Below are positions 3,235-52,514 of a stretch of DNA of 64,000 nt, one piece after another. Within the stretch, counting starts at the first letter, position 1. The number at the start of each line of letters is the position of its first letter. The notes below the pieces were generated by a model, which searched no databases, was not told the origin of the DNA, and saw only the letters and a program-made list of their open reading frames with translations. Source of the stretch: an uncultured Ruficoccus sp. (GTDB lineage Bacteria; Verrucomicrobiota; Verrucomicrobiia; Opitutales; Cerasicoccaceae); assembly GCA_965140785.1 (NCBI GenBank), contig OZ223475.1:128001-192000 (forward strand), written 5' to 3'. Made by a program: the position numbers and the translations under genes.

Positions 3235-4662
3235 TGCACTTGCGAAAGATATTTGAGCGCGTCAGTCCTGCCAGGAATTTTTGGTCCTGTGGAGTATTCG
3301 ATTCTGTGGTTTCTTGTTCCTTTACAGCAACTTATGGTTTTTGAAAAAGTTGTCTTGAAACCGCAAGCTTTACTTCTGCTGAGCATGTTGGCAGGTTGGA
3401 TGAACCGTCAGCAGCAGCAAGTCATCGACTATTTGGTGGAGGAGAATCGAGTTCTTCGTGAGCAACTCGACATCCACGCCAAGGGCAAACGCATTCGTTT
3501 CAACGCGAACCAACGCAGGCGCTTGGCTGAGAAAGGCCGTTGCCTGGGGTGTAAGATGTTGATGAAAATCGCGACGCTCGCGACACCAGAGACGATTTAC
3601 CGCTGGCATCGTCAGATTGTTGCAATGGCTTATGCCCCGAAGGGCCGGGATCATTCCGTAGTTCATGCCGGGCGGGCTCAGCGCAATGCGCTCATCATCA
3701 AGCTGGCCGTGGAGAACTCAGGCTGGGGATACACGCGTATCCAAGGCGTGATGCAGAATCTCGGCTATCCCAAACTGAGCACTTCGACTATCGGAGAGGT
3801 GCTGCGCGAGGCGAGTATCCGGCCTTCGCCGGAGCGCGGCAGTCGCTTGAATTGGAAGACGTTCATTCGCGTTCATGCCGATCAGCTTGCTGCCACAGAC
3901 TTCTTCATGGTGCCGGTGTGGACCTTGCGCGGACTGGCCATGTGCCGGGTGCATTTCGTGATCGATCTGCTGACGCGAAAGGTGGAGATCACGCATATCG
4001 GTTGCCAATACTCCGGAGAGTTGATGCTCCAAATTGCCCGGAACCGGACGGATGCATTCGAAGGATTTTTGACCGGCAAAAAGTACATGCTGCATGACCG
4101 AGACCCGCTCTTTACTCAGGCATTTCGGGATCTGCTGCGTAGCAGCGATACGATACCTCTGAAGCTGCCACCGCGCATGCCGATGATGAACGGCTACGCG
4201 GAGTGCTTCGTCAAATCGATCAAGCGTGAGTGTCTGGATAAGATGATTTTCTTCAGCGAGGATGCTCTGCGGAAGGCCATCGCTCAATACGTGCTGCATC
4301 ACCTCCATGAGAGGCCGCACCAGGGCCGCGATAACAAAATCATAGAGCCGGATGTAGAAACCTTTAGGAATCAGGGCCCGATCCGAAAAATCGCACACCT
4401 CGGCGGGCTCCTGAATCACTACTATCGCGATCCATTACCGGAAATTGGCGAAGAGGAGGGGAGGGCTGCATGAGCTTTTCCGAGAGTCACTTTTCTTCAA
4501 AAAATGCCCGAGTCCGATGCCCGGGTGACTCCTTTCCCATCGACTCATATGCCCTGAATCGGCAAAATCATGGGTGTATGATTTCGCCCTCCAACCTGCA
4601 AGCGAAAGGACTTCTGGCACGCGCAAGTGACTGAGCGATGCGCGTCAATGCGACTGCGTGCA
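3235..4662 (+). mobile_element. rve/IS481-like insertion sequence (ends uncertain)
   Basis: Imperfect terminal inverted repeats: TGCCAGGAAT at 3269 vs ACTTCTGGCA ending 4619, possibly extending to TGCAC (3235) / GTGCA (4662). No target duplication seen. Confidence 0.55.
3253..4473 (+). CDS. Integrase-core (rve, IS481-like) DDE transposase; the only apparently intact copy
   Basis: WGYTRIQG, AATDFF (D), LHDRD (D), NGYAECFVKSIKRECLD (E), HERPHQG and LGGLLNHY. The true start may be downstream (ATG 3334). Confidence 0.88.
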   Translation: MSASVLPGIFGPVEYSILWFLVPLQQLMVFEKVVLKPQALLLLSMLAGWMNRQQQQVIDYLVEENRVLREQLDIHAKGKRIRFNANQRRRLAEKGRCLGCKMLMKIATLATPETIYRWHRQIVAMAYAPKGRDHSVVHAGRAQRNALIIKLAVENSGWGYTRIQGVMQNLGYPKLSTSTIGEVLREASIRPSPERGSRLNWKTFIRVHADQLAATDFFMVPVWTLRGLAMCRVHFVIDLLTRKVEITHIGCQYSGELMLQIARNRTDAFEGFLTGKKYMLHDRDPLFTQAFRDLLRSSDTIPLKLPPRMPMMNGYAECFVKSIKRECLDKMIFFSEDALRKAIAQYVLHHLHERPHQGRDNKIIEPDVETFRNQGPIRKIAHLGGLLNHYYRDPLPEIGEEEGRAA

Positions 4663-4763
4663 ACTCAATTACCTTAACTGAGCCTTAGTTGGCAAATAGA
4701 TGGAGTCGCTTTGTGCTGGTAATAAGCGACTTATGGATGCGAGTCCGCGTCCCGTCACCTCCA
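4620..4763 (+). repeat. att-like boundary unit 1 (arm repeats + IHF-like site + tmRNA 3'-end-like core)
   Basis: CCTTAACTGAG-CCTTAGTTGG (4672-4692), AATAAGCGACTTA, then GCGAGTCCGCGTCCCGTCACCTCCA ending 4763. Recurs at 18526, 42060, 42177 and 52201. Confidence 0.8.
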
Positions 4764-4808
4764 GTGTTGCGTTCTTCGGGTCCATGGCCTCGTTGGGGTC
4801 AGTAAGTG

Positions 4809-7223
4809 TTACCATGAGAAAAGGACGGCTCCGCTTACGCGTTCTACGGTTTCGAGCATGGGGCCGTGTTCGGTGTTGATCGTTTTGAGCTCGGGCGTTT
4901 TGCCGCCGACAAAGGGCCATTTGGGATTCTCCAAGAGCGTCGGTGTGGCATCGGTGGGCGGGAAAAAGCGAATCTTCGCTTCCTTGAGGCCATCAGCGCG
5001 TACGCGACGGGTTACGCCAAACTGGACGGACGTTTGCTCGCGGAAACTGACAACGCCGGCGTCTTGTTCGATGAAAACGCGGCACTCGTTGCGCCAGCCA
5101 CGCGCCTGATGGAAGTGCGCGATTCCGCCGCGCAGGCGTGTTTCGAGACCGAGCATCAGAGGCGCACCAAAAGGCGTGTGCAGGGAGTATTCCACGGTGG
5201 TGTCGGGCGTGTAGCCGGAGAAAAACCAGCCGTTGTCGTGCCGGTGGATGGACAGGACCGGTAGGCACTGGCTCCGTGTTTCGGCCTTGAAGCCGATATG
5301 CCAGCCAAGCTTTCCGATTGTGCGTCGAATGAGTTCTCCGAGGGGAAAGGTGGTGGCGGTGTCATCGTGGGCGGGCAGGCGATTCCTTTTTGAGAGGCCG
5401 AGTGGCAGCGGTCCGCGCACCCAGGTCAAAATGCCTCCACTCGGGGAGGTGTAGTGACTTGCCAATACACGCTCTTCGCCATTCTTCCGGGCGACAGCGT
5501 CGGTCTTAGCGCCTTCCGCTGGGCGCTCGCGCAAGGTCCCGCCGGACATGGTCGTGCGGTGGATAAAGGTGTCGGGCTCGATGCCGTCTTCGAAACGGTC
5601 GGACACCGGGAGCGTAGTGGCCGCTTCCATCGTTCCTTCGAGCGGATCCGCCAGCTCCAGTTGGAGGCGTTCGCGCAGCCGGGTAGAGTGGTCGAGGGGG
5701 CCGTAGACGAGAATGTTCTGGCCACTCTCGACCCACGCGAGCAGTTGTTCTTCGCTCGTTTTGTCAAAAGGCGTGGGGGTGATCAGCAGGCGTCCGCCAA
5801 GCGCTGCACGCTGCTTTTCGCCCAGCTCGGTAAAGGCTCGCGTGCTGATGACGGAGTTGACCGGCAGGCCATTGTTAATGGCCTCGCGCATAAACCAATC
5901 CACGTGGAAAAGCCGCTCTGGTTGCCGGGGTTCGCTAAACATGGCGTCGTGAAGCTGGTCGAAGGGATAGAGCCAGACGATGGGCCCGGCGGCGTCGGGA
6001 CGTTCGTCCCAGGCGCGCAGCAGGTGCGGGGCGCAGGTGTCGGGGACGGCGTCGGGCATGTTACCGTGGGAGTCGTCGATGGTCATCAGGCCAAGGGTCT
6101 GGGGCACTTCGGTCTTACCTTCTGCGGTGATCCGCGCCGATGCCAGCGGCAGGTAGATGTCGTGCGGCTGGCGCTCGTAGCGATCGAGCCAAGGGCTGTT
6201 CAGCCACCACGGGTCATGGGTGTAAAAACGAAACGGAAACTCCTCGCCGGGGGGGAGTTCCACGATGCGGCTGAGGTACCCGGCCAGCTCTATCCCGAAA
6301 TCGCCGTTGATGGCGGCCCAGGGTGAGTTGGGGGGAGGGGCCATGTTGAAGTCCCCGTCGTAGATTTCGCGCAGCGGAGTAGCGTCGCTGGCCAGGTCGG
6401 TTGCTGTGCCGAGGTTCGTGCCGCGGGTTTCTACACGCCGGTCCGGACACTCACGCCGAAAGTCCTTCCAGAAGGCGAGGATGCGGTCGCGCGTTTCATT
6501 TGCCAGCTCGGGCTGGAAGGTGGCACCGTCAAAGAGCGGGCCGACAGCCATCCATGTCTCCATCCCGAAGCCGAAGCCGTTCGAGAGCCATAGGTAGTCG
6601 GCGTCCAGATCGTCGGCCAGTCGCTGAAACTGGCGACCGAGAAAAGTCCCCATGCTGGTGTCCTGCGGGATGCCTTTGGGGAACCCGGCATAGTTGCGGT
6701 CATCTGCGTTGAGGATACCGTAGCAGCAGACAAAGCTGCCTTTGCCACTGGTGTCGGCGAGGCAGATCTCCGGGTGGGTTTCGTATTTAAACTTGGAGGG
6801 GGCGAACTCGCCGCTGGGGTCAAAAGTCAGCCCGATGCGTACGGGCTTGCCGATGGCGGCAACAGCCTCGCGCCAGACGGCTACGATCTCGGCAAAGCGC
6901 CGGTAGGTGATTTTTTCGACCCCGTCGCGGTAAAAATGAGGGTGTTTGTACAGGCTGACTCCCTCCGGGTCCGCCGGTATATACGGGTGGAGGTGGGGAT
7001 TGGCGTTACCCTGATAGCGGGCCCACTCCATTTCGTCGTCAAGGTTGCCGGAGTATTCCAGGATTTCCGAGCCGTCCGAGGCCCAGAACATCACTGAGAG
7101 CGTGTCGGCGCGCTCGATCAGAATACGCCACTGCCGCAGGGCGTGGTCACAGACCGCGCGGAGACCATCGTGATCGAGCCCGTAAAAGGGCTTCAGGGAG
7201 ACTTCCAAGGTGAAAATTTTCAT
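4809..7223 (-). CDS. Uncharacterised ~800-aa protein, possible carbohydrate-active enzyme
   Basis: Long ORF with GC-rich coding bias; likely start MKIFTLEVSLKPF at 7223; directly downstream of IclR; no family recognised. Confidence 0.75.
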   Translation of the reverse strand: MKIFTLEVSLKPFYGLDHDGLRAVCDHALRQWRILIERADTLSVMFWASDGSEILEYSGNLDDEMEWARYQGNANPHLHPYIPADPEGVSLYKHPHFYRDGVEKITYRRFAEIVAVWREAVAAIGKPVRIGLTFDPSGEFAPSKFKYETHPEICLADTSGKGSFVCCYGILNADDRNYAGFPKGIPQDTSMGTFLGRQFQRLADDLDADYLWLSNGFGFGMETWMAVGPLFDGATFQPELANETRDRILAFWKDFRRECPDRRVETRGTNLGTATDLASDATPLREIYDGDFNMAPPPNSPWAAINGDFGIELAGYLSRIVELPPGEEFPFRFYTHDPWWLNSPWLDRYERQPHDIYLPLASARITAEGKTEVPQTLGLMTIDDSHGNMPDAVPDTCAPHLLRAWDERPDAAGPIVWLYPFDQLHDAMFSEPRQPERLFHVDWFMREAINNGLPVNSVISTRAFTELGEKQRAALGGRLLITPTPFDKTSEEQLLAWVESGQNILVYGPLDHSTRLRERLQLELADPLEGTMEAATTLPVSDRFEDGIEPDTFIHRTTMSGGTLRERPAEGAKTDAVARKNGEERVLASHYTSPSGGILTWVRGPLPLGLSKRNRLPAHDDTATTFPLGELIRRTIGKLGWHIGFKAETRSQCLPVLSIHRHDNGWFFSGYTPDTTVEYSLHTPFGAPLMLGLETRLRGGIAHFHQARGWRNECRVFIEQDAGVVSFREQTSVQFGVTRRVRADGLKEAKIRFFPPTDATPTLLENPKWPFVGGKTPELKTINTEHGPMLETVERVSGAVLFSW

Positions 7224-7261
7224 GGGGGTGTTGAGTTTTTTTTCATGGGGGGTGTTAAGTT

Positions 7262-8080
7262 TTATAAAAGGGCGGGAGTGCGGGGGGGGCGTTCCGTTGC
7301 CAGGCGCTTGTTGGCGGGGACCATGTCCTTGCACCAGAGTTGTTCGATAGCAGCAGCGGCCTGCTTCAGGACGTTCAGGCTATGCGTGATCTGTTCCTCT
7401 TTACTGAGTCGAAGGGTGGGGGCGCTGGCCCCGATGCTGGCGAGAGTGCCGCCCCAGGGGTTACGAATGGGGACGGCCACGGCGCTGATGCCCTCGCAGT
7501 ATTCGTCGCAGGTGCGGGCGTAGCCGTCCTGCCTGACGCCAGCGAGCTCCGGGCGGAGCTTCTCGGGCGTATTCAGGGTTTGCGGGGTGAGCGCCTGCAG
7601 TTCTGTCTCGCGCAAGTAGTCCTCGAGCTCCTTATCACTGAGCGAGGCCAGCAGCACTTTGCCAAACGCGGTGCAGTAAGAGTGGCTGCTTAGCTCCTCG
7701 GGCTCCTGGACGCGCAGCGCGTGCTGAGAGGGGACGTATTTGAGGTTGATCATTCTGCCGTGCTCGATCGAGCCCAGCAGGATGCTTTCGTTTAATTGGC
7801 TGGCGACGTCATCCACGATTGCGCTCGCGGTGGATACAAGGGTGTGGCGGTAGCGGGGATGCTGCCCCAGAAGTACCAGGCGAATGCCGGGTTCGAACAG
7901 CTTGGTTTTGGGATCCTGGCGCAAGTAGCCGCGGTCACAAAAGGTCTGCGCGATATTATGCACGGTAGCGACGTTCATCCCGAGCTGTCCAGCCAGACTG
8001 CGCGTGCCAATTCCGTCCTGGCTGCGGAAGATCGCTTCTAGGATGGACAGACTTTTTTCCAGTGTGGAAACACGCGGCAT
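7262..8080 (-). CDS. IclR-family transcriptional regulator
   Basis: TLEKSLSILE...ATVHNIAQT HTH; CTAFGKVLLA and GYARTCDEYCEGISAVAVPI. Confidence 0.93.
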   Translation of the reverse strand: MPRVSTLEKSLSILEAIFRSQDGIGTRSLAGQLGMNVATVHNIAQTFCDRGYLRQDPKTKLFEPGIRLVLLGQHPRYRHTLVSTASAIVDDVASQLNESILLGSIEHGRMINLKYVPSQHALRVQEPEELSSHSYCTAFGKVLLASLSDKELEDYLRETELQALTPQTLNTPEKLRPELAGVRQDGYARTCDEYCEGISAVAVPIRNPWGGTLASIGASAPTLRLSKEEQITHSLNVLKQAAAAIEQLWCKDMVPANKRLATERPPRTPALL

Positions 8081-8670
8081 TTTTATGTTTAAATAAAATA
8101 AACAGAATGGATTGTCTGCTCGGAACAAATGTATTTAAATCGCTATGATTACTCTTAAATACTCGAAATATTCGCGTTTCAAGGAAAAATTCCAAATTTC
8201 TTGTGTTTAATATTTACGAACAGATTAGTTGTTGGGCGGTGCTTGCATTAAAACAGCCCCGGGTGGGGCAGGCAGCATATCTAGCCCGCCGACTAGCGAT
8301 TATCGGCCGCACATGGGCACAGCTAACGCGGGTCGACACTCGTAGTGCCGGAATCGGTATCGCTTGGGGACCGTTTTCAGGCAACGGTTAGGACCAAATG
8401 GCTGCGCCCGCCGAGGTGGCTTTCTGCACGGCGCGGTGCCATTCGGCTTCGCAGCGACCGAGGAATTTTTCCCAGCCATTCAGTGTGCCGTTCGAACCAT
8501 AGTCGCGCATGGTATCTTCGTAGAGCTCGCCATGCGGTCCATTTGAGTATGCTATTTTATGATTTCTCATACATTGACAGCAACTTACGGTTTTTTTGAG
8601 AAAGTGACCGTGTCCACTTAAACTGAGCCGCTTGCAAAGTTAGTCTGAGTGCTTAGAAAGGACTCAGACG

Positions 8671-8937
8671 ATGAAAGGCAAGCGATACAGTACAGAGCAA
8701 AAAATCCGCATTTTACGCGCCGCTGATGCTGGCAGAGCGATCGTGGATGTCTGCCGCGAGGCAGGGATCAGCGAGCAGACGTTCCACCGCTGGAAGCGGG
8801 AGCTTGGGATGCTGGAAGTCGATCAGGCCAAGCAACTGAAGGAACTGCAAAAGGAGAACGCTCGGCTGAAGCGTATGCTGGCGGACGAGATACTTGGTAA
8901 GGAGCTGCTGAAGGAGGCGCTCGAAAAAAAATGGTAA
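8671..8937 (+). CDS. IS3 transposase OrfA
   Basis: MKGKRYSTEQKIRIL...GISEQTFHRWK HTH and coiled coil; ends KKW*. Confidence 0.92.
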   Translation: MKGKRYSTEQKIRILRAADAGRAIVDVCREAGISEQTFHRWKRELGMLEVDQAKQLKELQKENARLKRMLADEILGKELLKEALEKKW

Positions 8938-9911
8938 GCCCTGCACACAAGCGCGAGATGGCGCAAACTCTGGTGTCGCAGGGCAGATGTTCAGCGCGGG
9001 CGGCCTGCCGTCACTTTGGGTTGCATCGCAGTACCTTCGGCTATCAGGCGAAGGAGACTACGCCCTGGTTGGCAAAGTTACGTGGGGCTTTGCGTCGCAA
9101 GAGCGAAGCGCATCCCGAGCTGGGTTACCCGAAAATCACTCATCTACTCAAGCGCGATGGTTGGGACGTAGGTAAGCGGCTGGTGCAGCGCCTGCGCCAG
9201 GAGATGGGGCTGAAGTGTCCGACTAAGAAGCCTCGTCAGCGTCGGCGCGGCCCCTCGACGGGCTTACCGACAAAGGCTACTCATCGCAACCACGTGTGGA
9301 CCTGCGACTTCGTGGCCGACCGTACGGCTAAGGGCGGATCAATCCGCATGCTCACGGTACTCGATGAGTACACCCGTGAGTGCCTGTGCATCCACGTCGA
9401 TCGCCACCTCAACGCCGCCAAGGTGCGAGCCGTCATGAGCGAGTTGATCAGTGCCTACGGCAGCCCCGAGCACATCCGTAGCGACAACGGCAGCGAGTTT
9501 ATCGAGAAGAGCCTGCGTAAATGGTACGCGGACGAGGAGATCAAGACGCTCTACATTGAGCCGGGCAGTCCCTGGCAGAACGGCTACATAGAATCCTTCA
9601 ACGGCAGACTCCGCGATGAGTGCCTCAACCGCGAGTGGTTTTATACGCTCACCGAGGCACGCGTGGTCATTGAGGACTGGAGGTGGAAATACAACAACAT
9701 CCGCCCGCACCGTTCACTCGGACTGCTCACGCCGCTCGAGTTTGCAGCCAAAGAAACCGCACCAACCCCCTTCGACATCAACTTCCAAGGCATGGGCTAC
9801 ACTCGGGCTACGCCCTCCTTGCGCCCAAGCCTTGACACCCTCTACAACCTAACCCTAAATCACATCATTAACCCGCTCAGACTAACTCTCAATGCGGTAC
9901 AGTTTGCGTAG
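8931..9911 (+). CDS. IS3 transposase OrfB (DDE), reached by -1 frameshift
   Basis: WTCDF, IRSDNGSEF, PGSPWQNGYIESFNGRLRDECLN and YNNIRPHRSL. Confidence 0.92.
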   Translation: MVSPAHKREMAQTLVSQGRCSARAACRHFGLHRSTFGYQAKETTPWLAKLRGALRRKSEAHPELGYPKITHLLKRDGWDVGKRLVQRLRQEMGLKCPTKKPRQRRRGPSTGLPTKATHRNHVWTCDFVADRTAKGGSIRMLTVLDEYTRECLCIHVDRHLNAAKVRAVMSELISAYGSPEHIRSDNGSEFIEKSLRKWYADEEIKTLYIEPGSPWQNGYIESFNGRLRDECLNREWFYTLTEARVVIEDWRWKYNNIRPHRSLGLLTPLEFAAKETAPTPFDINFQGMGYTRATPSLRPSLDTLYNLTLNHIINPLRLTLNAVQFA

Positions 9912-9919
9912 GCAGGTCA

Positions 9920-44192: not shown

Positions 44193-44231
44193 CCCGGAAT
44201 ACGTTTAGTTCCTCAAATATCCTATTTACCC

Positions 44232-45956
44232 ATGAGCGTTGCAAAAGCTTATTTTGCAGCGACAGCGTTGCTGTCGCTGGTGTCGGCCTCAGCCGATGAG
44301 CGGAGCTGTGATTTACCCTCAGCGGAGACTGCCTTTGAGGTTGTGCAGTCCAGCGCGACGACGGTGATCCCGGCGGGTACTTATCGGGTGGAGGAGGGGG
44401 GTATCCGCCTCAAAGGGTTGCGTGACGCCGTCATTGACGCGCGTGGGGTGACGCTACTGGCCTCCGATCACCGCTCAAGTGCCCTGACGATCAGCGATTG
44501 CGAAAACCTGACCTTGCGCGGCTTCACGCTCGACTACGATCCTTTGCCGTTTACGCAGGGTACGATTACTGCGGTTGATCCGGACAAGCGTACGGTGGAC
44601 ATCGCCCTGCACGCGGGCTACCCGGCGCTTTCGACCTTTGAGAAGCTGCGCCCGCTCAATCTCTTTGATCCGGACGGACGCTGGAAGATCGGCGTTCCAG
44701 AGTACTATATGAAGAAGATCGAGGATCTGGGTGGGCATCAGGCGCGGGCCTACTTTTCCAAGGGGGCGGGCGGCTTTGATCTCTTTACGGTTGGGGATAA
44801 GGTGGCCATGAACGTGCGCGGTTTTGCCGGGATCAAGATCACGGATTGTTCCAGCGGTATTCGGCTGGAGAACGTGACCATCTACGCCGCACCGGGGATC
44901 GCCGTGATCGTGCGCTTTGCCGAGGATGGAGGGGCACTGGAGCGGGTGCGTGTCGTTCCGGGTCCTCCGCCGGAGGGTGCGACAGAGCCGCGTTTACTAT
45001 CCTCCTCGGCCGACGCGCTGAATGTCGCTTACACGCGGGGAGGGCTGGTTGTGAGCGGATGCGAATTTTCCCACATGGGCGACGACTCCATCAACCTGCA
45101 TGGGGTGGCGCTGCCGGTGCTGAAGTGGATCGACCATAAAACCTTTCTGACCATGCGCCCGTACGCCGGAGAGGACTTCGATAAACTGCTGCATGCCGGG
45201 GACGAAATCCATTTCCTGTCGGACACCGACTACAGTCAGTTGCAAACCGCACGCCTGGCCCAGGCCCGCAAGACGGAGGAGAAAGCTGAGGATTGGGCTG
45301 ACGCGTTGAAAAAATTCTGGCCGCACGCTTCCAAGCACAATGAATCGAGCTTCTTCGTTATTGAGCTGCAGGAGCCGGTAGCGGATGTTCCCGCCGGAAG
45401 CTACACAGAAGTGCCCGCGACGAACGCCTCGGGCTTCACCATCCACGATAACTACTTCCACGATCACCGGGCGCGGGGACTGCGCCTGATGAGTACGGAT
45501 GGCGTGGTAGAGAACAACCGCTTCGAGCGGATAAAGGGCGTGGCGATCAGCCTGGGGCCGCAGTTTACCTATTGGGCTGAGGCCGGTTGGTGCTCGGACA
45601 TCACCATCCGCGGAAACACGATCCTCGATGTGGGCGAAGGGGCTGCCATTTGTTCAGCCGAGAGTGAGACGCTGGGTGCGATCTCCATCGCCTGTCGTAT
45701 GCTGACACCCGAGGCGACGAACAATCTTCCCGCCGGTAACCACAACATCACCATCACGGATAACCTGATCGACGGCTGCTCGGTGGCGGGCATCAGCGTA
45801 AGCGCCGCCCGTGATGTCGTGATCACCGACAACACGATCCGTCGGGTCAACCAGCGGGCTTGTCCCGAGGCTGGAAGTCGGCAGGGACTTCACTCTGAGG
45901 ACCCGATCACGGTCATTCAGGCCGAGGTCACGATTGAAGGAAACACGGTCGAGTAA
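44232..45956 (+). CDS. Secreted right-handed beta-helix enzyme, GH110-like
   Basis: LDYDPLPFTQGTITAV, LLSSSADALN and CEFSHMGDDSINLHG; parallel beta-helix repeats. Confidence 0.8.
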   Translation: MSVAKAYFAATALLSLVSASADERSCDLPSAETAFEVVQSSATTVIPAGTYRVEEGGIRLKGLRDAVIDARGVTLLASDHRSSALTISDCENLTLRGFTLDYDPLPFTQGTITAVDPDKRTVDIALHAGYPALSTFEKLRPLNLFDPDGRWKIGVPEYYMKKIEDLGGHQARAYFSKGAGGFDLFTVGDKVAMNVRGFAGIKITDCSSGIRLENVTIYAAPGIAVIVRFAEDGGALERVRVVPGPPPEGATEPRLLSSSADALNVAYTRGGLVVSGCEFSHMGDDSINLHGVALPVLKWIDHKTFLTMRPYAGEDFDKLLHAGDEIHFLSDTDYSQLQTARLAQARKTEEKAEDWADALKKFWPHASKHNESSFFVIELQEPVADVPAGSYTEVPATNASGFTIHDNYFHDHRARGLRLMSTDGVVENNRFERIKGVAISLGPQFTYWAEAGWCSDITIRGNTILDVGEGAAICSAESETLGAISIACRMLTPEATNNLPAGNHNITITDNLIDGCSVAGISVSAARDVVITDNTIRRVNQRACPEAGSRQGLHSEDPITVIQAEVTIEGNTVE

Positions 45957-45970
45957 GCCAAGTTTACCCC

Positions 45971-47635
45971 ATGTTCACGATGAAACCCCACCTGATGCTC
46001 CTCGCCCTGATCGGCTGTTGTGCCTGCCTGAGTGCCCCCGCAGCAGACGTTACGTCCCGCTCGATTGCCGGGCTGCCTCTGATCGAGAAAAACGTGTCCA
46101 ACGCGGTTGCGCCCACTGACGCCAAGGGAATGGCCTGGCGCTGGAGCCCGGAGGGTCGCCGCGATGTCGGACAGACTTTTGAAGTGATCGAGCCGTTCAC
46201 GGCACGGGAGCTGGCCATCGAGATACGTTCGTCCATGAAAGACGCCCGTCCCGAGGCCCCTTTCTCTCTGGTTTTCACCCGTTGCGATCCGACCGGTTCG
46301 ATTACGGGTGCACCTATCGCAACATTCACCGGTGTGCTCCCCGGGGCTGCTGAGAAGCTCAGGAGCGGGTGCTGGCTGGACTTGACCTTCCCGCCTTTGC
46401 CTCTGGAGCCGGGCCGCTACGCGTTTGTTCTCAGCTTCACCGATGGGCCTCTGCCAGGGCAGGGGGCGGTTTTCGTCGTCGATGGTGCCAGGCAGGCCGA
46501 GCAAACGGGGCTGCGCGGGATAGGTGGACAGAGCACTCATTATAAGGTCAGTGCGCCCTTGAGTTTTATTCTCTCATCGGGAGCGAGTGTCCTGGACACG
46601 CACGAGCCGCGCGAACTCCTTGTCGATCAGCGCGGTGGCGCTCCCTACCGGACGCTGCGTGCGGCGGTGGCCGACGCGAAGCCGGGAGACACCATCCGGC
46701 TGGCCCAAGGCAGCGGCCCGTACCGTGAGATCCTTTATATCCCGCAATCCGGGACGCCAGAAGCCTGCATCACGGTGGACGGCTCTGGCGAGACGGTGAC
46801 GGGCTTTGAGCCGCTGGAAGGATTTGTGCGGGACGGTCAGGTGTGGACGTGCGATCTGACACCTTACCTTTCAAGGATCAAGCATGTGCAGGGCTTTACC
46901 CTGAAGGACGGGCGTTGGCAGAGCGAAGTTTTCCCGGCAGCCTTCCCGTCCGTGCTGACCTACCGCGGCGAACGCCTGCGGCAGGATGCGATCAGCGGTG
47001 ATTTCACGCGGTACGCGCACCTGAGTGATGATGGTCAGGCGCTCGTGCTGGAGGACGGTGTTTCGCCCGAGGGGTGGGAAATCGCGCTACGGCCCTTTGC
47101 GGTGCGTGTCCTCAATGCCTCCCACCATTGCTACCGGAACCTCCGCGCCTCGGGCAGTCTCAACGACGGATTTAACCTCCACGGTAACGGTGAAGACCTG
47201 CGTTTCGAGCACATAGAGGGGTTTCAAAACATCGACGAGGGCTTTTCCGCACACGACGATATCCGCTGCTCGATTGTGGGCGGCAAGTTCTGGGACAACG
47301 ATAACGGCCTCTACGGCGGCCAGGCTGAGATCGTCCTGAAGGATGTGGATATTTATGACAACCTCGGCTTTGGTTTCGGCATCACAAAGGGGGAAGGAAA
47401 CTTGGCGAAGGTGCGCATTTGGGGCAACGGGATCTGCCAGTTTATTCAGTCTCCCGGCACCCGCCTGAGCTGCGAGGATGTCGAGGTCTATGCGTTGGGT
47501 AACCCTGGACGCCAGTGGATTTCCGTGCAGGAGTCGCGCCGCTGGGCGGAGCCCGTCCAGACCCGTATCGATGTGACCGGTCCCGGTGCCGCCGAACTCA
47601 ACCTGCTCCCTTCAACCACTCCGGCCAAGCTCTGA
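45971..47635 (+). CDS. Secreted two-domain protein with C-terminal beta-helix (pectin-lyase-like fold)
   Basis: PYRTLRAAVADAKPGDTIRL, NDGFNLHG and DEGFSAHD. Confidence 0.78.
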   Translation: MFTMKPHLMLLALIGCCACLSAPAADVTSRSIAGLPLIEKNVSNAVAPTDAKGMAWRWSPEGRRDVGQTFEVIEPFTARELAIEIRSSMKDARPEAPFSLVFTRCDPTGSITGAPIATFTGVLPGAAEKLRSGCWLDLTFPPLPLEPGRYAFVLSFTDGPLPGQGAVFVVDGARQAEQTGLRGIGGQSTHYKVSAPLSFILSSGASVLDTHEPRELLVDQRGGAPYRTLRAAVADAKPGDTIRLAQGSGPYREILYIPQSGTPEACITVDGSGETVTGFEPLEGFVRDGQVWTCDLTPYLSRIKHVQGFTLKDGRWQSEVFPAAFPSVLTYRGERLRQDAISGDFTRYAHLSDDGQALVLEDGVSPEGWEIALRPFAVRVLNASHHCYRNLRASGSLNDGFNLHGNGEDLRFEHIEGFQNIDEGFSAHDDIRCSIVGGKFWDNDNGLYGGQAEIVLKDVDIYDNLGFGFGITKGEGNLAKVRIWGNGICQFIQSPGTRLSCEDVEVYALGNPGRQWISVQESRRWAEPVQTRIDVTGPGAAELNLLPSTTPAKL

Positions 47636-47641
47636 TCCGTC

Positions 47642-48289
47642 ATGATACGCGCCCGTCACACATCCCCGTCTGGCTTCACGCTGGTTGAGCTGCTGACTGC
47701 AATCGCAGTTATTGCCGTGTTGGGGGCGATTCTCATCGCGGCCATGCCGGCGGCTTCCCGCAGTGCGCATCGCACCGAGTGCGCAAGCAACCTGCGGCAA
47801 CTGGGGCAGGTGTTTAGCCTTTACGCCATTGATCACAGCGGGATGCTTCCGGCGCCCAAGGACAATTATCTGAACGAGAATGCCCCCTCGGTCTCTTGGA
47901 TGACCATTGCTCAGGAGTACATTGAGGCGAGGTTTCCCAAGGTGGGCGAACGGAATATCCTGTTATGCCCATCCGCGCAAGACACCTTCCCGGACGGCAA
48001 GGCGCGCCGCAGCTACGGCATGAACGCGGCGGGCACCGATGGGAAAACGCCATTCCGGCTCTCCTCGATCGATGACCCCGCGCAGACGCTGCTGCTCGCC
48101 GACACCCGTGAGAACGGGGCGGGGCAGGGCGACGGGGTCAGCCGTTTCGGGATCAACAACTACAGCACGACCGTGGAGTTCCGGCATGACGGCCAGCTCA
48201 ACGCCCTGTTTTTCGACGGGCATGTCGAATCCATCGACGAGAATGATCCCGCCAAGCTCCGTAAGTACGTCGAGAACTTGATTCCCTGA
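47642..48289 (+). CDS. Prepilin-type N-terminal cleavage protein with H-X9-DG motif
   Basis: GFTLVELLTAIAVIAVL, CASNLRQLG, SYGMN and RHDGQLNALFFDGHVE. Confidence 0.92.
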   Translation: MIRARHTSPSGFTLVELLTAIAVIAVLGAILIAAMPAASRSAHRTECASNLRQLGQVFSLYAIDHSGMLPAPKDNYLNENAPSVSWMTIAQEYIEARFPKVGERNILLCPSAQDTFPDGKARRSYGMNAAGTDGKTPFRLSSIDDPAQTLLLADTRENGAGQGDGVSRFGINNYSTTVEFRHDGQLNALFFDGHVESIDENDPAKLRKYVENLIP

Positions 48290-48297
48290 TTTTTACC

Positions 48298-49761
48298 ATG
48301 AACGACATTGTTACGACTGAGCCGCAAACGGCCTCCGCAATCACCAAGCAACTGATGCCGCTGGACAACTACAGCGACTCCGAGGCCAGCGCATGGACCG
48401 GCGAGAAAGTCCGCGTGAAGATCGCCTATATCGGCGGCGGCAGCCGCGAGTGGGCGGTGAAGTTGATGGCCGATCTCGCACTCTCTGATCGTATCTGCGG
48501 TCAGCTTGATCTCTACGATATCGACGCCTCCGCCTGTGCGCAGAACAAGGCATTGGCTGACGCGGTTTTTGCGCACGAGCAGGCCCGCACGCGTTTTGAG
48601 GTGCGTGTAGCCCCCGACTTGGACTCCGCCCTGCGGGACGCTGACTTCGTCATCGTATCCATCGAACCGGGACCGGTCACGCACCGCCATGCGGACCTGG
48701 AGATACCCGCGCGCTATGGGGTGCTCCAAACGGTGGGCGACACCACCGGACCGGGCGGTGTCCTGCGGGCCATGCGGAGTGTGGCGACGTTTGAGCAGTT
48801 CGGGCGCAGCATCGCGGAGTGCTGCCCGGAGGCCTGGGTGATCAACTACACCAATCCGATGGCAGTTTGTACCGCCTCGCTCTTCCGTTATGCGCCGCAG
48901 TTGAAAGCCTTCGGATGCTGCCATGAAGTGTTCGGCACGCAGGAGATGCTGGCGAAAAAAGTGGCGCAGTGGTTCGATGTTCCGGTGCCCGCGCGGACAC
49001 AGATCCAACTGGAAATCGCCGGGGTCAACCACTTCACCTGGGCGACAGCGGCACGCTGGCGCGGCCATGATTTGTTCCCCTACCTGGAGAAGCTGGTAGG
49101 CGATGACACGCTGTTCGCTTCGCGCTTGGAGGATGCTCAGCAGAAGGTTAAGGATGGAAAGTGGTTCTCGTCGCACCACCTGGTGGCACTGGATCTGTTC
49201 CGTCGCTTTGGAGCGCTCGGGGCCGCCGGAGACCGGCATCTGTCCGAGTTTCTGCCGTGGTACTTGACGAGCGAGGAAGAGCTGCACCGTTGGGGCGTGC
49301 TTCGCACGCCTTATGCCTGGCGGGTTGAGCGTACCCAGGGGCCTCGCAAGCAGGCCGACGAAGTTTTTTCGGATGCGCTATCGGCCTCAGGTGAGGAGGG
49401 CGTGCTCCAGATGGAGGCTCTTCTCGGCCTGCGTGAACTGACGACGAACATCAACCTGCCCAATCGCGGGCAGCTCCCCTGTGCTCCCAAAGGAGTCGTG
49501 GTTGAGACCTATGCGTCCTTCCGGGAAAACGCCATCTGCCCGCTCATGGCGGGTGAGGCACCTGCCGGTGTGCGCGCATTGATCGCCGATGCCGCTCACC
49601 AGCAGGAGGTGCTTTTAGAAGCGCTCTTCAATCGCCGCCTGGAAGCTGCCTTTGAGGCGATGCTTCTGTCGCCCCTGGTCACGATCCCGACGGACAAGGC
49701 CCGAGCGATGTTCCAGGAGATGGTCGCGGCAGTGGAGCCCATGCTCGGAGACTGGCGTTAG
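48298..49761 (+). CDS. GH4 NAD-dependent glycosidase, alpha-galacturonidase (LplD-like)
   Basis: IAYIGGGSREW, QTVGDTTGPGG and INYTNPM, plus the CHEV motif characteristic of GH4 alpha-galacturonidases. Confidence 0.88.
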   Translation: MNDIVTTEPQTASAITKQLMPLDNYSDSEASAWTGEKVRVKIAYIGGGSREWAVKLMADLALSDRICGQLDLYDIDASACAQNKALADAVFAHEQARTRFEVRVAPDLDSALRDADFVIVSIEPGPVTHRHADLEIPARYGVLQTVGDTTGPGGVLRAMRSVATFEQFGRSIAECCPEAWVINYTNPMAVCTASLFRYAPQLKAFGCCHEVFGTQEMLAKKVAQWFDVPVPARTQIQLEIAGVNHFTWATAARWRGHDLFPYLEKLVGDDTLFASRLEDAQQKVKDGKWFSSHHLVALDLFRRFGALGAAGDRHLSEFLPWYLTSEEELHRWGVLRTPYAWRVERTQGPRKQADEVFSDALSASGEEGVLQMEALLGLRELTTNINLPNRGQLPCAPKGVVVETYASFRENAICPLMAGEAPAGVRALIADAAHQQEVLLEALFNRRLEAAFEAMLLSPLVTIPTDKARAMFQEMVAAVEPMLGDWR

Positions 49762-49867
49762 CGCCCGTTCGGTCCCCCCCCACAAACATTGACGGCAAGT
49801 CCGCGCCGGTGGTGACACCGCAGCGCGTGGGCTTTGCCATGCAAACTCAAAGAGAAGAAGACATTGG

Positions 49868-51817
49868 ATGAGACTGGAAACGATTGATTGGGTTATTGTG
49901 GGCTTGGCGCTCGCAATCGTTGCAGGGGCGGCCCTGTATACGAAGCGTTACCTCAGGAGCGTGGTTGACTACATGGCCGGTGGGCGCTGTGCCGGGCGTT
50001 ACATGCTGTGCGCCGCCCGCGGGGAAATGGCCTCCGGCGCGGTGGTGTTTGTCTCTCTGTTTGAGATTTTCAGCAACTCCGGGTTCACGTTGGTATGGTG
50101 GCAATGGTTAAGTTTTCCGGTCATCATCCTCGTCGCGGTGTCCGGCTTTGTCATCTACCGCTACCGCGAAACGCGGGCGCTGACGCTGGCTCAGTTTCTG
50201 GAGATGCGCTATAACAAGAGCCTCCGTGTTTTCTCCGGTATCCTGAGCTTTTTCGCGGGGATTCTGAACTTCGGGATCATCCCGGCCGTGGGGGCGCGGT
50301 TCTTCGTTTACTTTATCGGCCTGCCCACGCAGACACCGATCTTCGGTTTCAGCGTGCCGACGTTTGTCATTGTAATGGTCTTGCTCATGAGCGTGACGAT
50401 TTTTCTCACCCTCTCGGGCGGGCAGATATCCGTCATGGTCTCGGACTGCATCTCCGGGCTGATGGACCAGTGGCTGTTTCTCATCATAACAGTGGTGCTG
50501 ATGGGGATGTTTACCTGGTCGCAGGTGACGGATGTGATGCTGGTTCAGCCCGAGCCCGGGCACTCGCTCATGAACCCTTTCGATGCGATGGGACTGGACG
50601 ACTTTAACCTGTGGTATGTCCTCATGGAAATGACGCTGGCAGTGTATGGCACGATGGCCTGGCAGAATGCCAGCGCCTACAACTCCGCCGCGCTCAACCC
50701 GCACGAATCACGGATGGGCAACGTGCTCGGGCGCTGGCGTGAGTTCGGGCGGATACTGGCGATCACCGTGCTGGCCATCGCCGGCATGACCTACCTCGGG
50801 CATTCGGACTTTGCGCACGACGCGGCCTCAGTGCGCGACATTCTCAGCAATATGACGAATGAGCGTCTGCAAGGCCAGATGACGATCCCGACGGCTCTCT
50901 CGTTTCTGCTCCCGGTGGGCATCAAGGGGCTTCTGTGTGCCGTGCTCATCACGGGCGTCTGGGGTGGCGACACGACACACCTGCACTCTTGGGGCGGCAT
51001 TCTGGTGCAGGACGTGATAATGCCCCTGCGCCGCAAACCCTTTAGCCAGAAGGCGCACATCTTGGCCCTGCGCCTGAGCATGTTTGGCGTGGGGCTGTTT
51101 GCCGTGCTCTTCGGAGCCTTTTTCACACAGACTGAGTACATCACCATGTGGTTCAAGATCACCACGGCGATCTTTGTCGGTGGGGCTGGGTCGGTGATCA
51201 TCGGCGGACTCTACTGGAAAAAAGGCACCGCCGCCGGGGCCTGGACCGCGATGCTCAGCGGCTCCCTCCTGGCGACTTCAGGTATCCTCGTACGTCAGGT
51301 CTATCCGGACTTCCCGCTCAACCCGGTGCAGATTTCGTTCGGTTCGGCCCTGATCTCGATCAGCCTGTACGTGGTTGTTTCGCTGATAACCTGTAAGGAG
51401 GACTTTAACATGGACCGCATGCTCCACCGTGGCAGGTATGCGGTGGGGGAGGTAGAATCTCCTGAACAGCAGGCTGACGATTCTGTGCCCCCGACGAAAA
51501 AGAAGTTTAGCTGGTTGAAGCTGATTGGGGCGGAGGGTGACTATCCCGTAGCGGACCGTTGGATTTCTGGTATCATTACCGGATGGCTCATGACGCTGAC
51601 CGGTATTATGATCGTCGGAACCATATGGAATCTTATCTCGCCCTGGTCTGACGAAACCTGGTCCACATTTTGGCTGTGGCTGGGGATTGTGATCCCGCTG
51701 GCTATTAGTGTCTGTACTGCGGTCTGGTTCACCATCGGAGTCGTACGTGACTTGCGGGTATTTTTCCGTTTACTCAAATCTGAAAATGTGAACGAACACG
51801 ACGATGGTACCGTCTGA
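49868..51817 (+). CDS. Sodium:solute symporter family protein
   Basis: Many transmembrane helices; DYMAGGRCAGRY and YRYRETRALTLAQFLEMRY. Confidence 0.88.
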   Translation: MRLETIDWVIVGLALAIVAGAALYTKRYLRSVVDYMAGGRCAGRYMLCAARGEMASGAVVFVSLFEIFSNSGFTLVWWQWLSFPVIILVAVSGFVIYRYRETRALTLAQFLEMRYNKSLRVFSGILSFFAGILNFGIIPAVGARFFVYFIGLPTQTPIFGFSVPTFVIVMVLLMSVTIFLTLSGGQISVMVSDCISGLMDQWLFLIITVVLMGMFTWSQVTDVMLVQPEPGHSLMNPFDAMGLDDFNLWYVLMEMTLAVYGTMAWQNASAYNSAALNPHESRMGNVLGRWREFGRILAITVLAIAGMTYLGHSDFAHDAASVRDILSNMTNERLQGQMTIPTALSFLLPVGIKGLLCAVLITGVWGGDTTHLHSWGGILVQDVIMPLRRKPFSQKAHILALRLSMFGVGLFAVLFGAFFTQTEYITMWFKITTAIFVGGAGSVIIGGLYWKKGTAAGAWTAMLSGSLLATSGILVRQVYPDFPLNPVQISFGSALISISLYVVVSLITCKEDFNMDRMLHRGRYAVGEVESPEQQADDSVPPTKKKFSWLKLIGAEGDYPVADRWISGIITGWLMTLTGIMIVGTIWNLISPWSDETWSTFWLWLGIVIPLAISVCTAVWFTIGVVRDLRVFFRLLKSENVNEHDDGTV

Positions 51818-51866
51818 GTGTTGATTCTGGTTTGACCCGTTTCCCGCATTCAAGGAGTGAGGCAGC

Positions 51867-52200
51867 ATCTCGGCTATCCCAAGCTGAGCACTTCGAGCAT
51901 CAAGGACGCAATAACAAGATCATCGAGCCGGACGCGGGGCCCCTTTCACAATCAGGGCTCGATCCGAAAAATCGTATACCTCGGCGGGCTCCTGAATCAC
52001 TCCTACCGCGAGCCATTACCGAAAATTGAGGAAGAGGAGGGGAGGGCTGCATGAGCTTTACCGGCAGTTACTTTTCTTCAAAAAATGCCCGAGTTCGATG
52101 CTCGGGCGACTCCTTTCCCATCGACTCATAGGCCCTCAATCGGCAAAATCATGGGTGTATGATTTCGCCCTCCAACCTGCAAACGAAAGGACTCTTGGCA
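51867..52200 (+). pseudogene. Internally deleted rve transposase remnant plus its 3' end
   Basis: LGYPKLSTS fused to the C-terminal ...LGGLLNHSYREPLPKIEEEEGRAA; 3' region near-identical to 4474-4619. Confidence 0.85.
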
Positions 52201-52514
52201 CACGCATGTGAATGAGTGATGCGCGTCAATGCGACTGCGTGCAACTCAATTACCTTAACTGAGCCTTAATTGGCAAATAGATGAAGTCGCTTTGTACTGG
52301 TAATAAGCGACTTATGGATGCGAGTCCGCGTCCCGCCACCTCCAATTTTTATTTGTCCTAAATGGCTATTATTACGCAAGTTGCGTAATAGTAACGCCTT
52401 AATGCGCGACAGGAAGCCTGTCCGAATACCCCTCAATACGACTCAAATCCCCCATTTTGCCTTAACTGGCTTTAACTGAGCGTTAACCGGGGACAGGTTT
52501 TGGATAAGGACAAA
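52201..52514 (+). repeat. att-like boundary unit 4 with arm repeats on both sides of the core (attP-like)
   Basis: Left CCTTAACTGAGCCTTAATTGG; core TCCCGCCACCTCCA 52331-52344; palindrome TATTACGCAA-G-TTGCGTAATA 52370-52390; right CCTTAACTGGCTTTAACTGAGCGTTAACCGG 52460-52490. Confidence 0.8.

Follow-up and report, generated by a model that had tools for sequence, protein, structure and literature searches.

tmRNA-like ends of a transposase module separate co-oriented sugar-utilisation segments downstream of ssrA in an uncultured Ruficoccus

In glycan-degrading Verrucomicrobiota, the sets of sugar-utilisation loci are large and specific to the strain, and their acquisition is poorly understood. 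The 64,000-nucleotide stretch of an uncultured Ruficoccus sp. analysed here (hereafter the window; C4:128001-192000 of the source contig, + strand) raises this question in a concrete form. Sugar-utilisation loci stand in a row between repeats that resemble the end of a tmRNA gene, and a tyrosine integrase gene follows the last repeat. A sequence-only reading had taken the repeats for att-like sites left at ssrA, and the row for an integron-like platform serviced by that integrase. What are the repeats, and what joined the segments between them?

A search for the pattern GCGTCCCGCCACCTCCA, with up to 3 mismatches allowed and 100 shuffles as a control, gave five matches in the window, all on the + strand and ending at 4763, 18669, 42176, 42262 and 52344; two more tmRNA-like C extend the second to 18671. 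Shuffled windows had 0.29 matches on average, and none of the 100 reached five. All five repeats are therefore present, in one orientation, at the positions previously claimed, and the spacing claimed between them (13.9 kb, 23.5 kb, 86 bp and 10.1 kb) is confirmed as well. The direct-repeat motifs reported for the unit were also found, as CCTTAACTG-type motif pairs. The block TGCTGGTAATCAGCGACTTA had four matches against zero expected and is absent from the truncated copy at 42177-42262, and AATCAGCGACTTA, earlier read as IHF-like, belongs to a conserved palindrome, AAGTYGCT...AGCGACTT, of which it forms the 3' half. Of the 59 occurrences of the motif CYTTAAYTG in the 4.36-Mb genome, 9 fall within -130 to +200 nt of a set of 11 core ends, every one on the + strand. 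The repeats are as follows.

4640..4763, + strand: repeat 1, minimal unit (pattern and profile matches, alignment), with the AATGCGACTGCGTGCAAC block, the motif pair CCTTAACTGAG/CCTTAGTTGG, the palindrome AGTCGCTT..AAGCGACT and a terminus of tmRNA-like T-arm and acceptor 3' strand that ends CACCTCCA
17947..18671, + strand: decayed module ending in repeat 2, with an internal deletion and a truncated rve ORF (17992-18540); its core TCCCGCCACCTCCACC is a 16-nt tmRNA match
42055..42176, + strand: repeat 3, minimal unit with a degraded core (CCAGCCACCTTCA; pattern, profile, alignment)
42177..42262, + strand: repeat 4, truncated unit that begins at the CCTTA motif pair and abuts repeat 3 directly
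51845..52344, + strand: last ~450 nt of the module, ending in repeat 5, ~90% identical to copy 1 and with the exact core TCCCGCCACCTCCA

ARAGORN placed an intact ssrA (tmRNA gene, encoding the tag GENEYAMAA) at C4:89785-90137 (+), 38 kb to the left of the window. An intact gene on the + strand, to the left and with a matching 3' end, was what the sequence-only reading had predicted, and the last 14 nt of the tmRNA before CCA indeed recur exactly in the repeats. The genome contains seven copies of this 14-mer, TCCCGCCACCTCCA, of which one belongs to the tmRNA and six to units, while 0.03-0.08 occurrences would be expected by chance. Exact identity between repeat and tmRNA spans 14-16 nt. Over the last 25 nt of an ungapped MAFFT alignment, repeat 5 agrees with the tmRNA at 21/25 positions and a copy from another genus at 22/25; outside the terminal ~25 nt the unit sequence has no relation to tmRNA. 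Rfam at gathering thresholds and ARAGORN yielded no tRNA, tmRNA or other Rfam match in the window; the units themselves are thus neither tRNA nor tmRNA genes. The repeats are copies of the end of the host tmRNA gene. A 411-aa ORF on the minus strand adjoins ssrA where an integrase might be expected; searches against Pfam, PHROG and NCBIfam gave no match for it, and it does not resemble the integrases.

Copies also continue beyond the window, a point that the sequence-only reading had left to be checked: an nhmmer profile detected 12 units genome-wide (seven on contig C4, four on C26 and one on C49). All seven C4 units lie on the + strand, downstream of ssrA and in its orientation, and so carry its 3' fragment as a displaced copy. 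The boundary at the 3' edge of the core is sharp in 12/12 units, and one unit truncates an SDR gene. A regulatory element or small RNA gene before sugar operons, resembling tmRNA by chance and marking no boundary of mobile DNA, would fit the position of the units between functional gene clusters, as well as a palindrome that by eye tolerates T.G pairs on the + strand in some copies. Nevertheless, this explanation is very improbable. The missing Rfam match and the truncated SDR gene count against it, and it is effectively refuted by the 14-nt tmRNA match together with the physical continuity of the units with a transposase gene in several genera.

At 52.7-55.4%, the GC content of C4:102.7-230 kb is below that of the genome as a whole (59.0%) and of the flanks (59.2/59.5%), and a unit at C4:230053 lies close to the point where the low-GC block stops. 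Within the window, the segments carry the following cargo.

4764..17946: interval 1, with an 841-aa protein, an IclR regulator, an rve paralogue fragment, an IS3-family IS (8605-9919), a metallophosphoesterase/Ig protein and a NAGPA-domain protein
18672..39326: interval 2, with RhaT, GH106, a second rhamnosidase, two SSF transporters, LacI and a GH3 with an F5/8 domain
42263..51844: interval 3, with LacI, a beta-helix protein, a protein with a prepilin-type N-terminus, GH4 and an SSF transporter

Compared with four sister genomes, the cargo of the three intervals has paralogue-level matches only (64-75%) and no syntenic counterpart; the homologues of the 841-aa and IclR proteins in two of them (G001 and G002) are 68-74% identical, again at paralogue level, and lie in other contexts. 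The window is part of a large, horizontally acquired block that starts at the 3' end of ssrA. The earlier interpretation of accretion at ssrA thus holds for the ssrA anchor, the co-orientation and the accessory low-GC cargo, but not for its integron-like and bare-att parts. A block of ~120 kb with similar loci lies on C26 and starts near a tRNA-Ser; neither C26 nor C49 carries a tmRNA gene. This tRNA-Ser and one on C8 were rejected as sources of the core, their 3' ends being unlike it.

Each repeat turned out to be the last 120-155 nt of a discrete ~1.47-kb module with an rve-type transposase gene, which is intact ahead of repeat 1 and decayed ahead of repeats 2, 3 and 5. Besides the copies listed above, its parts in the window are these.

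3290..4763, + strand: intact rve module with left end TGGAGTATTCG and a 290-nt non-coding tail that ends in repeat 1
3400 (ATG) to 4473, + strand: transposase ORF of 357 aa with D/D/E candidates ATDFF, LHDRD and NGYAECF
39327..40527, + strand: rve-module remnant, ~75-85% identical to copy 1, with one stop
40825..41682, + strand: IS3-family transposase remnant, an inserted or decayed element between the preceding remnant and repeat 3

Because every repeat is the right end of a transposase module, the intervals are not recombinase-free: the claim that none of them carries a recombinase is right for tyrosine recombinases, but an rve transposase gene or its remains are present. In the same way, the repeats do match the tmRNA 3' end as att-like sites would, but they are module ends and not bare att scars. 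The transposase matches rve_3 (5.9e-11) and a PHROG transposase (2.3e-15), and its D/D/E candidates are intact. It falls outside both families named by NCBIfam, since its scores of 76 bits lie below the IS481 and IS3 equivalog cut-offs of 224 and 160. The module termini are inverted (TGGAG...CTCCA here; an 11/14 inverted-repeat match in MAG copies), and the end lies at the identical nucleotide in at least seven contexts in this genome and three in MAGs of other genera, where the module is found as well. Copies within the genome share 80-91% nucleotide identity (dS 0.5-0.7), with intact ORFs at 2 of ~15 loci, and a dN/dS of 0.04-0.12 indicates that the transposase, and with it the module, is under purifying selection. 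Conservation of the unit is ~83% between two intragenomic copies with a dS of 0.62 between their transposase genes; the unit is therefore under constraint, too. Furthermore, metagenome contigs, which may be chimeric at repeats, contain 100% identical module copies of 842-1483 bp with differing flanks, including identical 1465-bp copies with two left and three right flanks, and on this ground the module apparently can move by itself.

These properties suggest an alternative in which the module is a plain IS with tmRNA-like inverted repeats, whose own DDE transposase made the co-oriented cargo pattern, the tyrosine integrase being irrelevant to the internal boundaries. The route would be IS26-like translocatable units inserting beside another copy or beside a tmRNA end that mimics the IS end, or else local transposition. 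We regard this as possible although rather unlikely. The discrete ends, the intact DDE candidates under selection and the differently flanked identical copies all fit it, as does the C26 array, which has no ssrA on its contig. No target-site duplication was seen by eye at the window copy, a MITE-like copy, four MAG copies and two metagenome copies; together with the direct orientation, this resembles IS26 arrays as far as these are described in the accounts considered (PMC4196232, PMC7885326). A tRNA or tmRNA gene lies within ~400 nt at 4/22 loci of distant homologues, which suggests a family-wide affinity for tDNA ends, and at 0/7 of the closer MAG loci. The sequence-only reading had named, as a finding that would tell against it, repeats that are part of an IS and scattered in both orientations; they are indeed part of an IS, but scatter in both orientations was not seen. 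On the other hand, the transposase is rve-type and does not belong to the IS6 family, and we know of no conservative targeted reaction for rve-type transposases. The intragenomic copies are old, unlike the active IS3-family IS of the same genome. Nor would transposition explain the CCTTAACTG motif pairs shared on both sides of the core, or the way in which an integrase arm is joined to tmRNA and module cores alike.

That arm lies at the right-hand side of the array, where the window contains the following features.

52345..52504, + strand: 165-nt arm with the TTACGCAAGTTGCGTAA hairpin and the CCTTAACTGG/CTTTAACTGAG motif pair
52564..53112, + strand: Tpt1/KptA-family RNA 2'-phosphotransferase gene, between arm and integrase
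53727-54926, + strand: tyrosine integrase gene with visible R/K/RHSFAT/SHRN/YQHY motifs
55617..56931, - strand: active IS3-family IS with 11 copies of at least 98.9% identity in both orientations

The tyrosine recombinase that had been claimed just past the last core was identified as the product of 53727-54926 (PHROG integrase, E=3.5e-16; Pfam PF00589 at 25.1 bits, just below the 27.1 cut-off). It is the sole PF00589-type gene in the window, and no PF00589 match was found between ssrA and repeat 5 (C4:90138 to C4:180344). The IS3-family IS parts the integrase gene from a truncated phage tail gene (56898-58358), and one identical copy of it sits 1.4 kb downstream of ssrA.

In two sister genomes (G003 and G004), ssrA directly abuts the same 165-nt arm, followed by an integrase gene 91-94% identical at the amino-acid level to that behind repeat 5. 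By this comparison, ~90 kb, including window positions 1-52344, intervenes between ssrA and the arm and integrase in the present genome. The sequence-only reading had proposed comparing related strains for breakpoints at the cores, and this between-species breakpoint does fall at a core. The order is tmRNA, arm, integrase in G004, and tmRNA, arm, integrase (94%), phage tail genes, rve, unit and a second arm and integrase in G003, whose island is canonical. The arm also follows units on C49 and, twice, in G003, and in another genus a 62-76% homologue of the integrase follows a unit. The position of the junction 'core | TTTTTATTTGTCC...' is the same to the nucleotide whether the core belongs to the real tmRNA, as in G003 and G004, or to a module, as at repeat 5, on C49, twice in G003 and in the MAG of another genus with the integrase homologue. 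This indicates that module-borne cores have served as attachment sites.

Three of the sister genomes bear units (two, one and three per genome). One unit in each lies on the ssrA contig and strand, downstream of the gene, at distances of 71.6 kb in G003, 13 kb in G002 and 14.5 kb in G001. The content downstream of ssrA in G001 and G002 is different and ends in a unit, and the junction 'tmRNA end | tail gene' in G002 has CCTC microhomology only. When the right-hand chromosomal border of the array was sought by synteny, almost no genes proved common to this genome and either G001 (~100 kb downstream of ssrA) or the stretch of G004 that was examined. Among the assembled contigs of two sequencing runs, one run holds the whole stretch and the second 56% of its words; neither excision nor strain polymorphism was observed in these contigs, and the joints listed match other genomic copies, such as the MITE-like copy on C26.

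Tandem islands could also have decayed in place, if every interval began as a complete island or prophage with an integrase of its own at ssrA, and ordinary deletions later took away all arms and integrases except the last. The two complete arm-integrase modules in tandem in G003 offer a model, phage tail remnants occur both beside ssrA and right of the integrase, the identical IS3 copies could drive deletions, and part of an integrase (93% aa) survives on C26, broken off at the left end of a module. However, random deletions are unlikely to have stopped at the 3' edge of the core each time, as the sharp boundaries of all units would require, and no arm or integrase remnant was found at the left ends of intervals 1-3. 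Decay of this kind is accordingly improbable.

We instead favour growth of the array by integrase-catalysed recombination at the tmRNA-like cores, in trans, in a CIME-like accretion, and hold this to be about evenly poised between right and wrong. The block consists of segments of cargo plus one rve module, all pointing one way. In support of this reading, the eight module loci of C4 all follow ssrA on its own strand, and the seven on C26 share one orientation. Each module combines the DDE (rve) transposase gene, a ~120-nt arm with the CCTTAACTG-type pairs and the palindrome, and a last stretch of ~25 nt copied from the tmRNA T-arm and acceptor 3' strand; arm and core together are in effect a portable attR-like site. 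Repeated site-specific recombination at the real ssrA end or at a module-borne core would have made the array grow, catalysed by the tyrosine integrase family that 53727-54926 represents and acting in trans on segments without an integrase of their own; IS3 activity and deletions may have eroded the array later. We infer that the internal segments were joined by the integrase, not by the transposase of the module itself, and that they came in singly. Some observations run against integrase accretion. The left ends of intervals 1-3 have neither arm nor integrase remnant, and lambda-type integrases normally require both arms. Units occur on C26 and C49 without a tmRNA gene on the contig, and one in G001 lies 1 Mb from ssrA. 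Moreover, the module has its own DDE transposase and inverted termini. Either the integrase or the transposase may thus have built the array.

Among work on tandem tDNA island arrays, the 2003 article 'Traffic at the tmRNA gene' by Williams reportedly belongs as well. In streptococcal CIME/ICE accretion, att-flanked segments without an integrase stand in tandem with an integrase-bearing element and are co-mobilisable. CIMEs are bounded by plain att sites, whereas the boundaries here are transposase modules, and no conjugation module was seen here. As in an accretion array, four core-to-core intervals without a tyrosine integrase are followed by an arm and an integrase.

The closest precedent is provided by the ssrA island arrays of Dehalococcoides. 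In the account of McMurdie et al. (2011, PMC3146451), these are tandem islands downstream of a single ssrA, with direct repeats of its 3' end and strain-specific catabolic genes; many have no integration module, and the integrase-less islands were proposed to be cis-mobilisable elements built by accretion. According to the same account (PMC3146451), the recombinase there is a serine recombinase (DsiB), the boundary is no more than a 20-bp fragment of ssrA, and the repeats are all confined to 100 kb, whereas here the candidate is a tyrosine recombinase, the boundary is an rve-module terminus with a ~120-nt arm, repeats also occur on contigs without ssrA and the cargo consists of multi-gene glycan-utilisation clusters. 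The boundary element here is unusual.

Islander, as outlined by Hudson, Lau & Williams (2015, PMC4383910), takes an intact tDNA and co-oriented displaced 3' fragments as marks of island ends; there, the tmRNA gene is the most enriched island target and attP bears a tDNA fragment from the T-stem region. The present locus likewise has an intact target gene, a displaced co-oriented fragment and a breakpoint at the core in related genomes. In a tandem array as treated in that source (PMC4383910), each member needs its own integrase and fragment; here, the fragments are present and the tyrosine integrase is absent from intervals 1-3.

An IS26 translocatable unit comprises one IS and adjacent DNA, and IS26 arrays hold cargo between directly oriented copies, the internal ones without target duplications, in the description by Harmer, Moran & Hall (2014, PMC4196232). 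In that description (PMC4196232), IS26 belongs to the IS6 family and its copies are perfectly identical, whereas the module here is rve-type (IS481/IS3-like, below both NCBIfam cut-offs) with copies 80-91% identical and an end that mimics a host RNA gene. We did not assign the array to the IS26-type translocatable units, the transposase being rve-type and not of the IS6 family. A search of titles and the beginnings of abstracts, not a thorough one, gave no match for an IS with tmRNA-like inverted repeats.

Integrons share with this array co-oriented segments stacked at one platform beside a tyrosine recombinase gene. Their cassettes are promoterless single genes, whereas the segments here are 10-23 kb long and multi-operon, with regulators of their own. 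The integron integrase model scored 22.1 bits against a cut-off of 265, and there are no attC hairpins and no attI/Pc. Stacking of cassettes one by one in the manner of an integron, serviced by the integrase at 53727, is thus unsupported.

A further, more speculative proposal, which we consider doubtful, would link the two enzymes: the rve module may be a mobile attachment site, that is, an IS that has, at its right end, both the arm and the core used by an integrase system specific for ssrA. If so, a transposing module would plant a landing pad for tyrosine-integrase elements and for integrase-less circles of cargo plus module, which would account for the array on C26, away from ssrA, as well as for the one at ssrA on C4. 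At this locus, the interplay of a transposase with a site-specific integrase takes a concrete form that can be tested. The boundary element is a selected, multi-genus transposase module with a terminus that copies a host RNA gene, and integrase arms adjoin this terminus at the very nucleotide where they adjoin the real tmRNA gene. At least 90 kb, and probably ~140 kb, of sugar-utilisation loci extend from this tmRNA gene as segments of one orientation. Should these segments be mobile as units, they would offer a route by which entire catabolic loci are exchanged, much as with the dehalogenase islands of Dehalococcoides, and a mobile attachment site would give marine Verrucomicrobiota a modular means to collect and exchange whole glycan-utilisation loci.

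The five repeats proposed by the sequence-only reading were recovered, with a 17-nt core pattern matching five times in the window, always on the + strand and ending at 4763, 18669, 42176, 42262 and 52344 (0.29 matches expected from shuffles), and a 20-nt block adjoining the core matching four times (0 expected). Read directly, the repeat consists of a CCTTAACTGAG-type motif pair, AATCAGCGACTTA and a T-arm-like stretch with the end CACCTCCA. A profile built from the five window copies and searched against the 4.36-Mb, 50-contig host genome found 12 copies: seven on C4 (the contig holding the window, at C4:128001-192000), four on contig C26 and one on contig C49. The genome has few CYTTAAYTG motifs (59), of which nine adjoin the 11 cores, on both core sides. 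ARAGORN placed an intact tmRNA gene (ssrA), the single credible one in the genome, 38 kb left of the window on the + strand (C4:89785-90137), as had been predicted, and its 3' end (...GCGGGTTCGACTCCCGCCACCTCCACCA) does match the core. Of seven genomic occurrences of the 14-mer TCCCGCCACCTCCA, one is in the tmRNA gene and six are in repeat units; chance alone would give 0.03-0.08. When 18 units and the tmRNA end were aligned with MAFFT, the last ~25 nt of the units aligned without gaps (repeat 5 matching at 21/25 positions and an other-genus copy at 22/25), and the other ~100 nt bore no relation to tmRNA. ARAGORN also called a permuted 'tmRNA*' with a 29-residue tag on contig C47 (85482-86080), which bears no likeness to the units and is probably a false positive.

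A blastn search with window 2900-4900 as the query revealed that each unit is the tail of a larger module of ~1.47 kb (3290-4763), which recurs in whole or in part on C4, C26, C49 and contig C48. The earlier picture is partly supported: its ssrA anchor and its accessory, co-oriented array hold, while the view that the cassettes lack a recombinase, have bare att scars as boundaries and depend on the integrase for servicing was not supported. The module product (357 aa) has rve/rve_3 domains, matches a PHROG transposase family and shows candidate D, D and E residues; its scores against the IS481 and IS3 NCBIfam models fell under the cut-offs. Reduced copies precede three of the repeats:
Before repeat 2: module copy with an internal deletion
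Before repeat 3: module remnant, split by an IS3-family element
Before repeat 5: final ~450 nt of a module copy
The left end, TGGAGTATGCGATTT, starts at the identical nucleotide in at least seven unrelated contexts, and one on C26 interrupts a 93%-identical integrase fragment. One module copy has a MITE-like internal deletion. The termini are TGGAG...CTCCA, and no target-site duplication was seen at any module copy examined.

By DNA, the unit was confined to the same genus among 30 relatives searched, with two, one and three copies in the sister species G001, G002 and G003, respectively, and none in a fourth, G004. MAGs labelled Puniceicoccales, from another genus, carry transposase homologues 67-69% identical in protein sequence; a unit of this kind, with TTCGAGTCCCGCCACCTCCA at its end, lay 3' of the gene in 5 of the 10 MAG loci examined, and the left end of the MAG copies, TGGAGGGTGCGG, is an 11/14 inverted match to the right end. 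The dN/dS of intact genes (two from the host genome, one from G003 and three from MAGs) was 0.04-0.12 and the dS between copies within one genome was 0.5-0.7; the transposase gene is therefore functional and its copies old. Scanned with the 21-nt core, metagenomes yielded six contigs, and five of these hold a 1465-bp module (99.6-100% identical) between two left and three right flanks; metagenome contigs can be chimeric at repeats, and with this caution we take these flanks as evidence of a discrete mobile element. A tRNA or tmRNA gene lay within ~400 nt at 4/22 distant homologue loci and at 0/7 closer MAG loci, and an association with tDNA ends may extend to the whole transposase family. The four distant homologues concerned (35-50% identical in amino acids) lie 157-372 nt from tmRNA, tRNA-Leu, tRNA-His or tRNA-Gln genes, at the following loci:
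L075 and L063, both in genome G273
L056, in genome G236
L051, in an Opitutae MAG

The units are strongly linked to ssrA. On C4, every one of the eight module loci is downstream of ssrA and on its strand, and the seven on C26 are co-oriented with one another; by simple arithmetic, random orientation would give (1/2)^8 and (1/2)^6, respectively. In the three unit-bearing sister genomes, one copy per genome shares the contig and strand of the tmRNA gene and lies 3' of it (G003, 71.6 kb; G002, 13 kb; G001, 14.5 kb), with the remaining copies (one in G001, two in G003) located elsewhere. An arm of ~165 nt directly adjoins the tmRNA gene, straight after ...CACCTCCA, in G003 and G004; this arm contains the hairpin TTACGCAAnTTGCGTAA and a CCTTAACTGG/CTTTAACTGAG pair and is followed by an integrase 91-94% identical to the tyrosine integrase of the window (53727-54926). 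The same arm and integrase come after repeat 5 in the host genome, so that, compared with the sister junctions, ~90 kb (C4:90138-180344) lies between ssrA and the arm. G003 has a textbook layout of tmRNA, arm, integrase, phage tail genes, rve gene, unit, and second arm with integrase. The core-arm junction recurs after module cores, once on C49, twice in G003 and once in an other-genus MAG with an integrase homologue (62-76%), and we read this recurrence as evidence that module-borne cores have acted as attachment sites.

The ssrA site appears to be used by different integrases in the genus. In G001 (C1:2688144 onward, locus L024), the tmRNA gene has behind it a different tyrosine recombinase of 588 aa and a 14.5-kb island; at the end of this island stand a diverged unit and the initial ~45 nt of the 165-nt arm. 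Between arm and integrase, the window carries a gene for a Tpt1/KptA RNA 2'-phosphotransferase (52564-53112), where the DNA of G003 differs. A weak match to the arm profile (E=8.8e-5) lies on contig C8 (4226-4324, - strand) downstream of tRNA-Ser(tga) (C8:4478-4565), and the sequences downstream of this gene and of tRNA-Ser(cga) on C26 are alike over ~100 nt.

In the host genome, ssrA is followed 3' by a diverged arm, a 411-aa ORF, an IS3-family IS and phage tail genes. The ORF (C4:90287-91522, - strand; L001:4287-5522 in our extract of this locus), at the position expected for an integrase, had no Pfam, PHROGs or NCBIfam match. The IS (1315 bp) has 11 copies at least 98.9% identical, in both orientations on six contigs:
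Window 8605-9919
Window 55617-56931, right of the integrase
C4:91495-92809, 1.4 kb downstream of ssrA
Eight other places
The copies near ssrA and right of the integrase are 100% identical, and related phage tail genes follow both of them, a pattern suggesting that two related prophage-like elements underwent deletion or rearrangement mediated by the IS. The two tail remnants (88% identical in nucleotides) encode tape measure, tail assembly, minor tail and tail (phrog_1101) proteins:
Window 56898-58842, behind the IS copy right of the integrase
C4:92.8-102.7 kb (L001:7237-16676), near ssrA, also with a Fic/DOC gene

The block is accessory. The genome has a GC content of 59.0% and the flanks 59.2/59.5%, against 52.7-55.4% in C4:102.7-230 kb; this low-GC block stops close to the C4:230053 unit. 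Window intervals 1-3 carry RhaT, GH106, a second rhamnosidase, GH3, GH4, SSF transporters and LacI/IclR regulators among other cargo, and this cargo had single-gene matches only (64-75%) in the four sister genomes. A similar low-GC block on C26 (~68-190 kb) holds all four C26 units together with GH88, GH127, GH4, GH42 and GH31 genes, sulfatases, a heparinase-like protein and many LacI/GntR/IclR/AraC regulators. A GFO/ADH-type gene pair at C26:70000-72179 recurs at C26:130363-132542 (99.8%) and C4:214850-216227 (98.6%), which is a recent segmental duplication within and between the two blocks; one copy stops precisely at an rve module's left boundary. A small protein whose N-terminus bears a prepilin-type methylation motif (PF07963) is also encoded in each sugar cluster:
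Window 20092-20808
Window 47642-48289
Window 60358-61122

Two enzymes could have built the co-oriented pattern of cargo plus module. The reading we favour, at about even odds, is that the tyrosine integrase acted in trans on segments, in a CIME-like accretion at tmRNA-like cores for which the module would supply a portable arm-plus-core. The canonical attL that sister species have at ssrA, the junction at one and the same nucleotide in tmRNA and module cores, the motif pairs flanking the core on both sides and the sharp boundary at the core edge in 12/12 units all argue for it. That the module's own transposase built the array, as an IS26-like translocatable unit or by local hopping, is a possible but rather doubtful alternative, favored by the termination of every segment in a module, its inverted termini, the lack of target duplications and of arm or integrase debris inside the intervals, the arrays away from ssrA, and the tDNA proximity of those four distant homologue loci. 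It is improbable that the intervals are once-complete tandem islands that have since decayed. An integron was also considered for the array and rejected.

The closest precedent is the set of tandem ssrA islands of Dehalococcoides, which carry strain-specific dehalogenase genes and are delimited by ssrA repeats of 20 bp that lie no farther than 100 kb from ssrA; in that study 16 of 31 islands had an integration module, and those without one were read as cis-mobilisable elements gathered by accretion (PMC3146451). The Islander principle of an intact tDNA plus a displaced fragment, under which tandem arrays are recognised, covers the anatomy of the Ruficoccus array (PMC4383910). In a literature search too thin to establish absence, no account turned up of an IS with an inverted repeat copying the tmRNA end. 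Compared with these precedents, the array has a tyrosine-type integrase, multi-operon glycan-utilisation clusters as cargo and a host of a Verrucomicrobiota lineage; the chief difference is that, in Ruficoccus, the displaced fragment and arm together form the terminus, kept under selection, of an rve-transposase module that several genera share.
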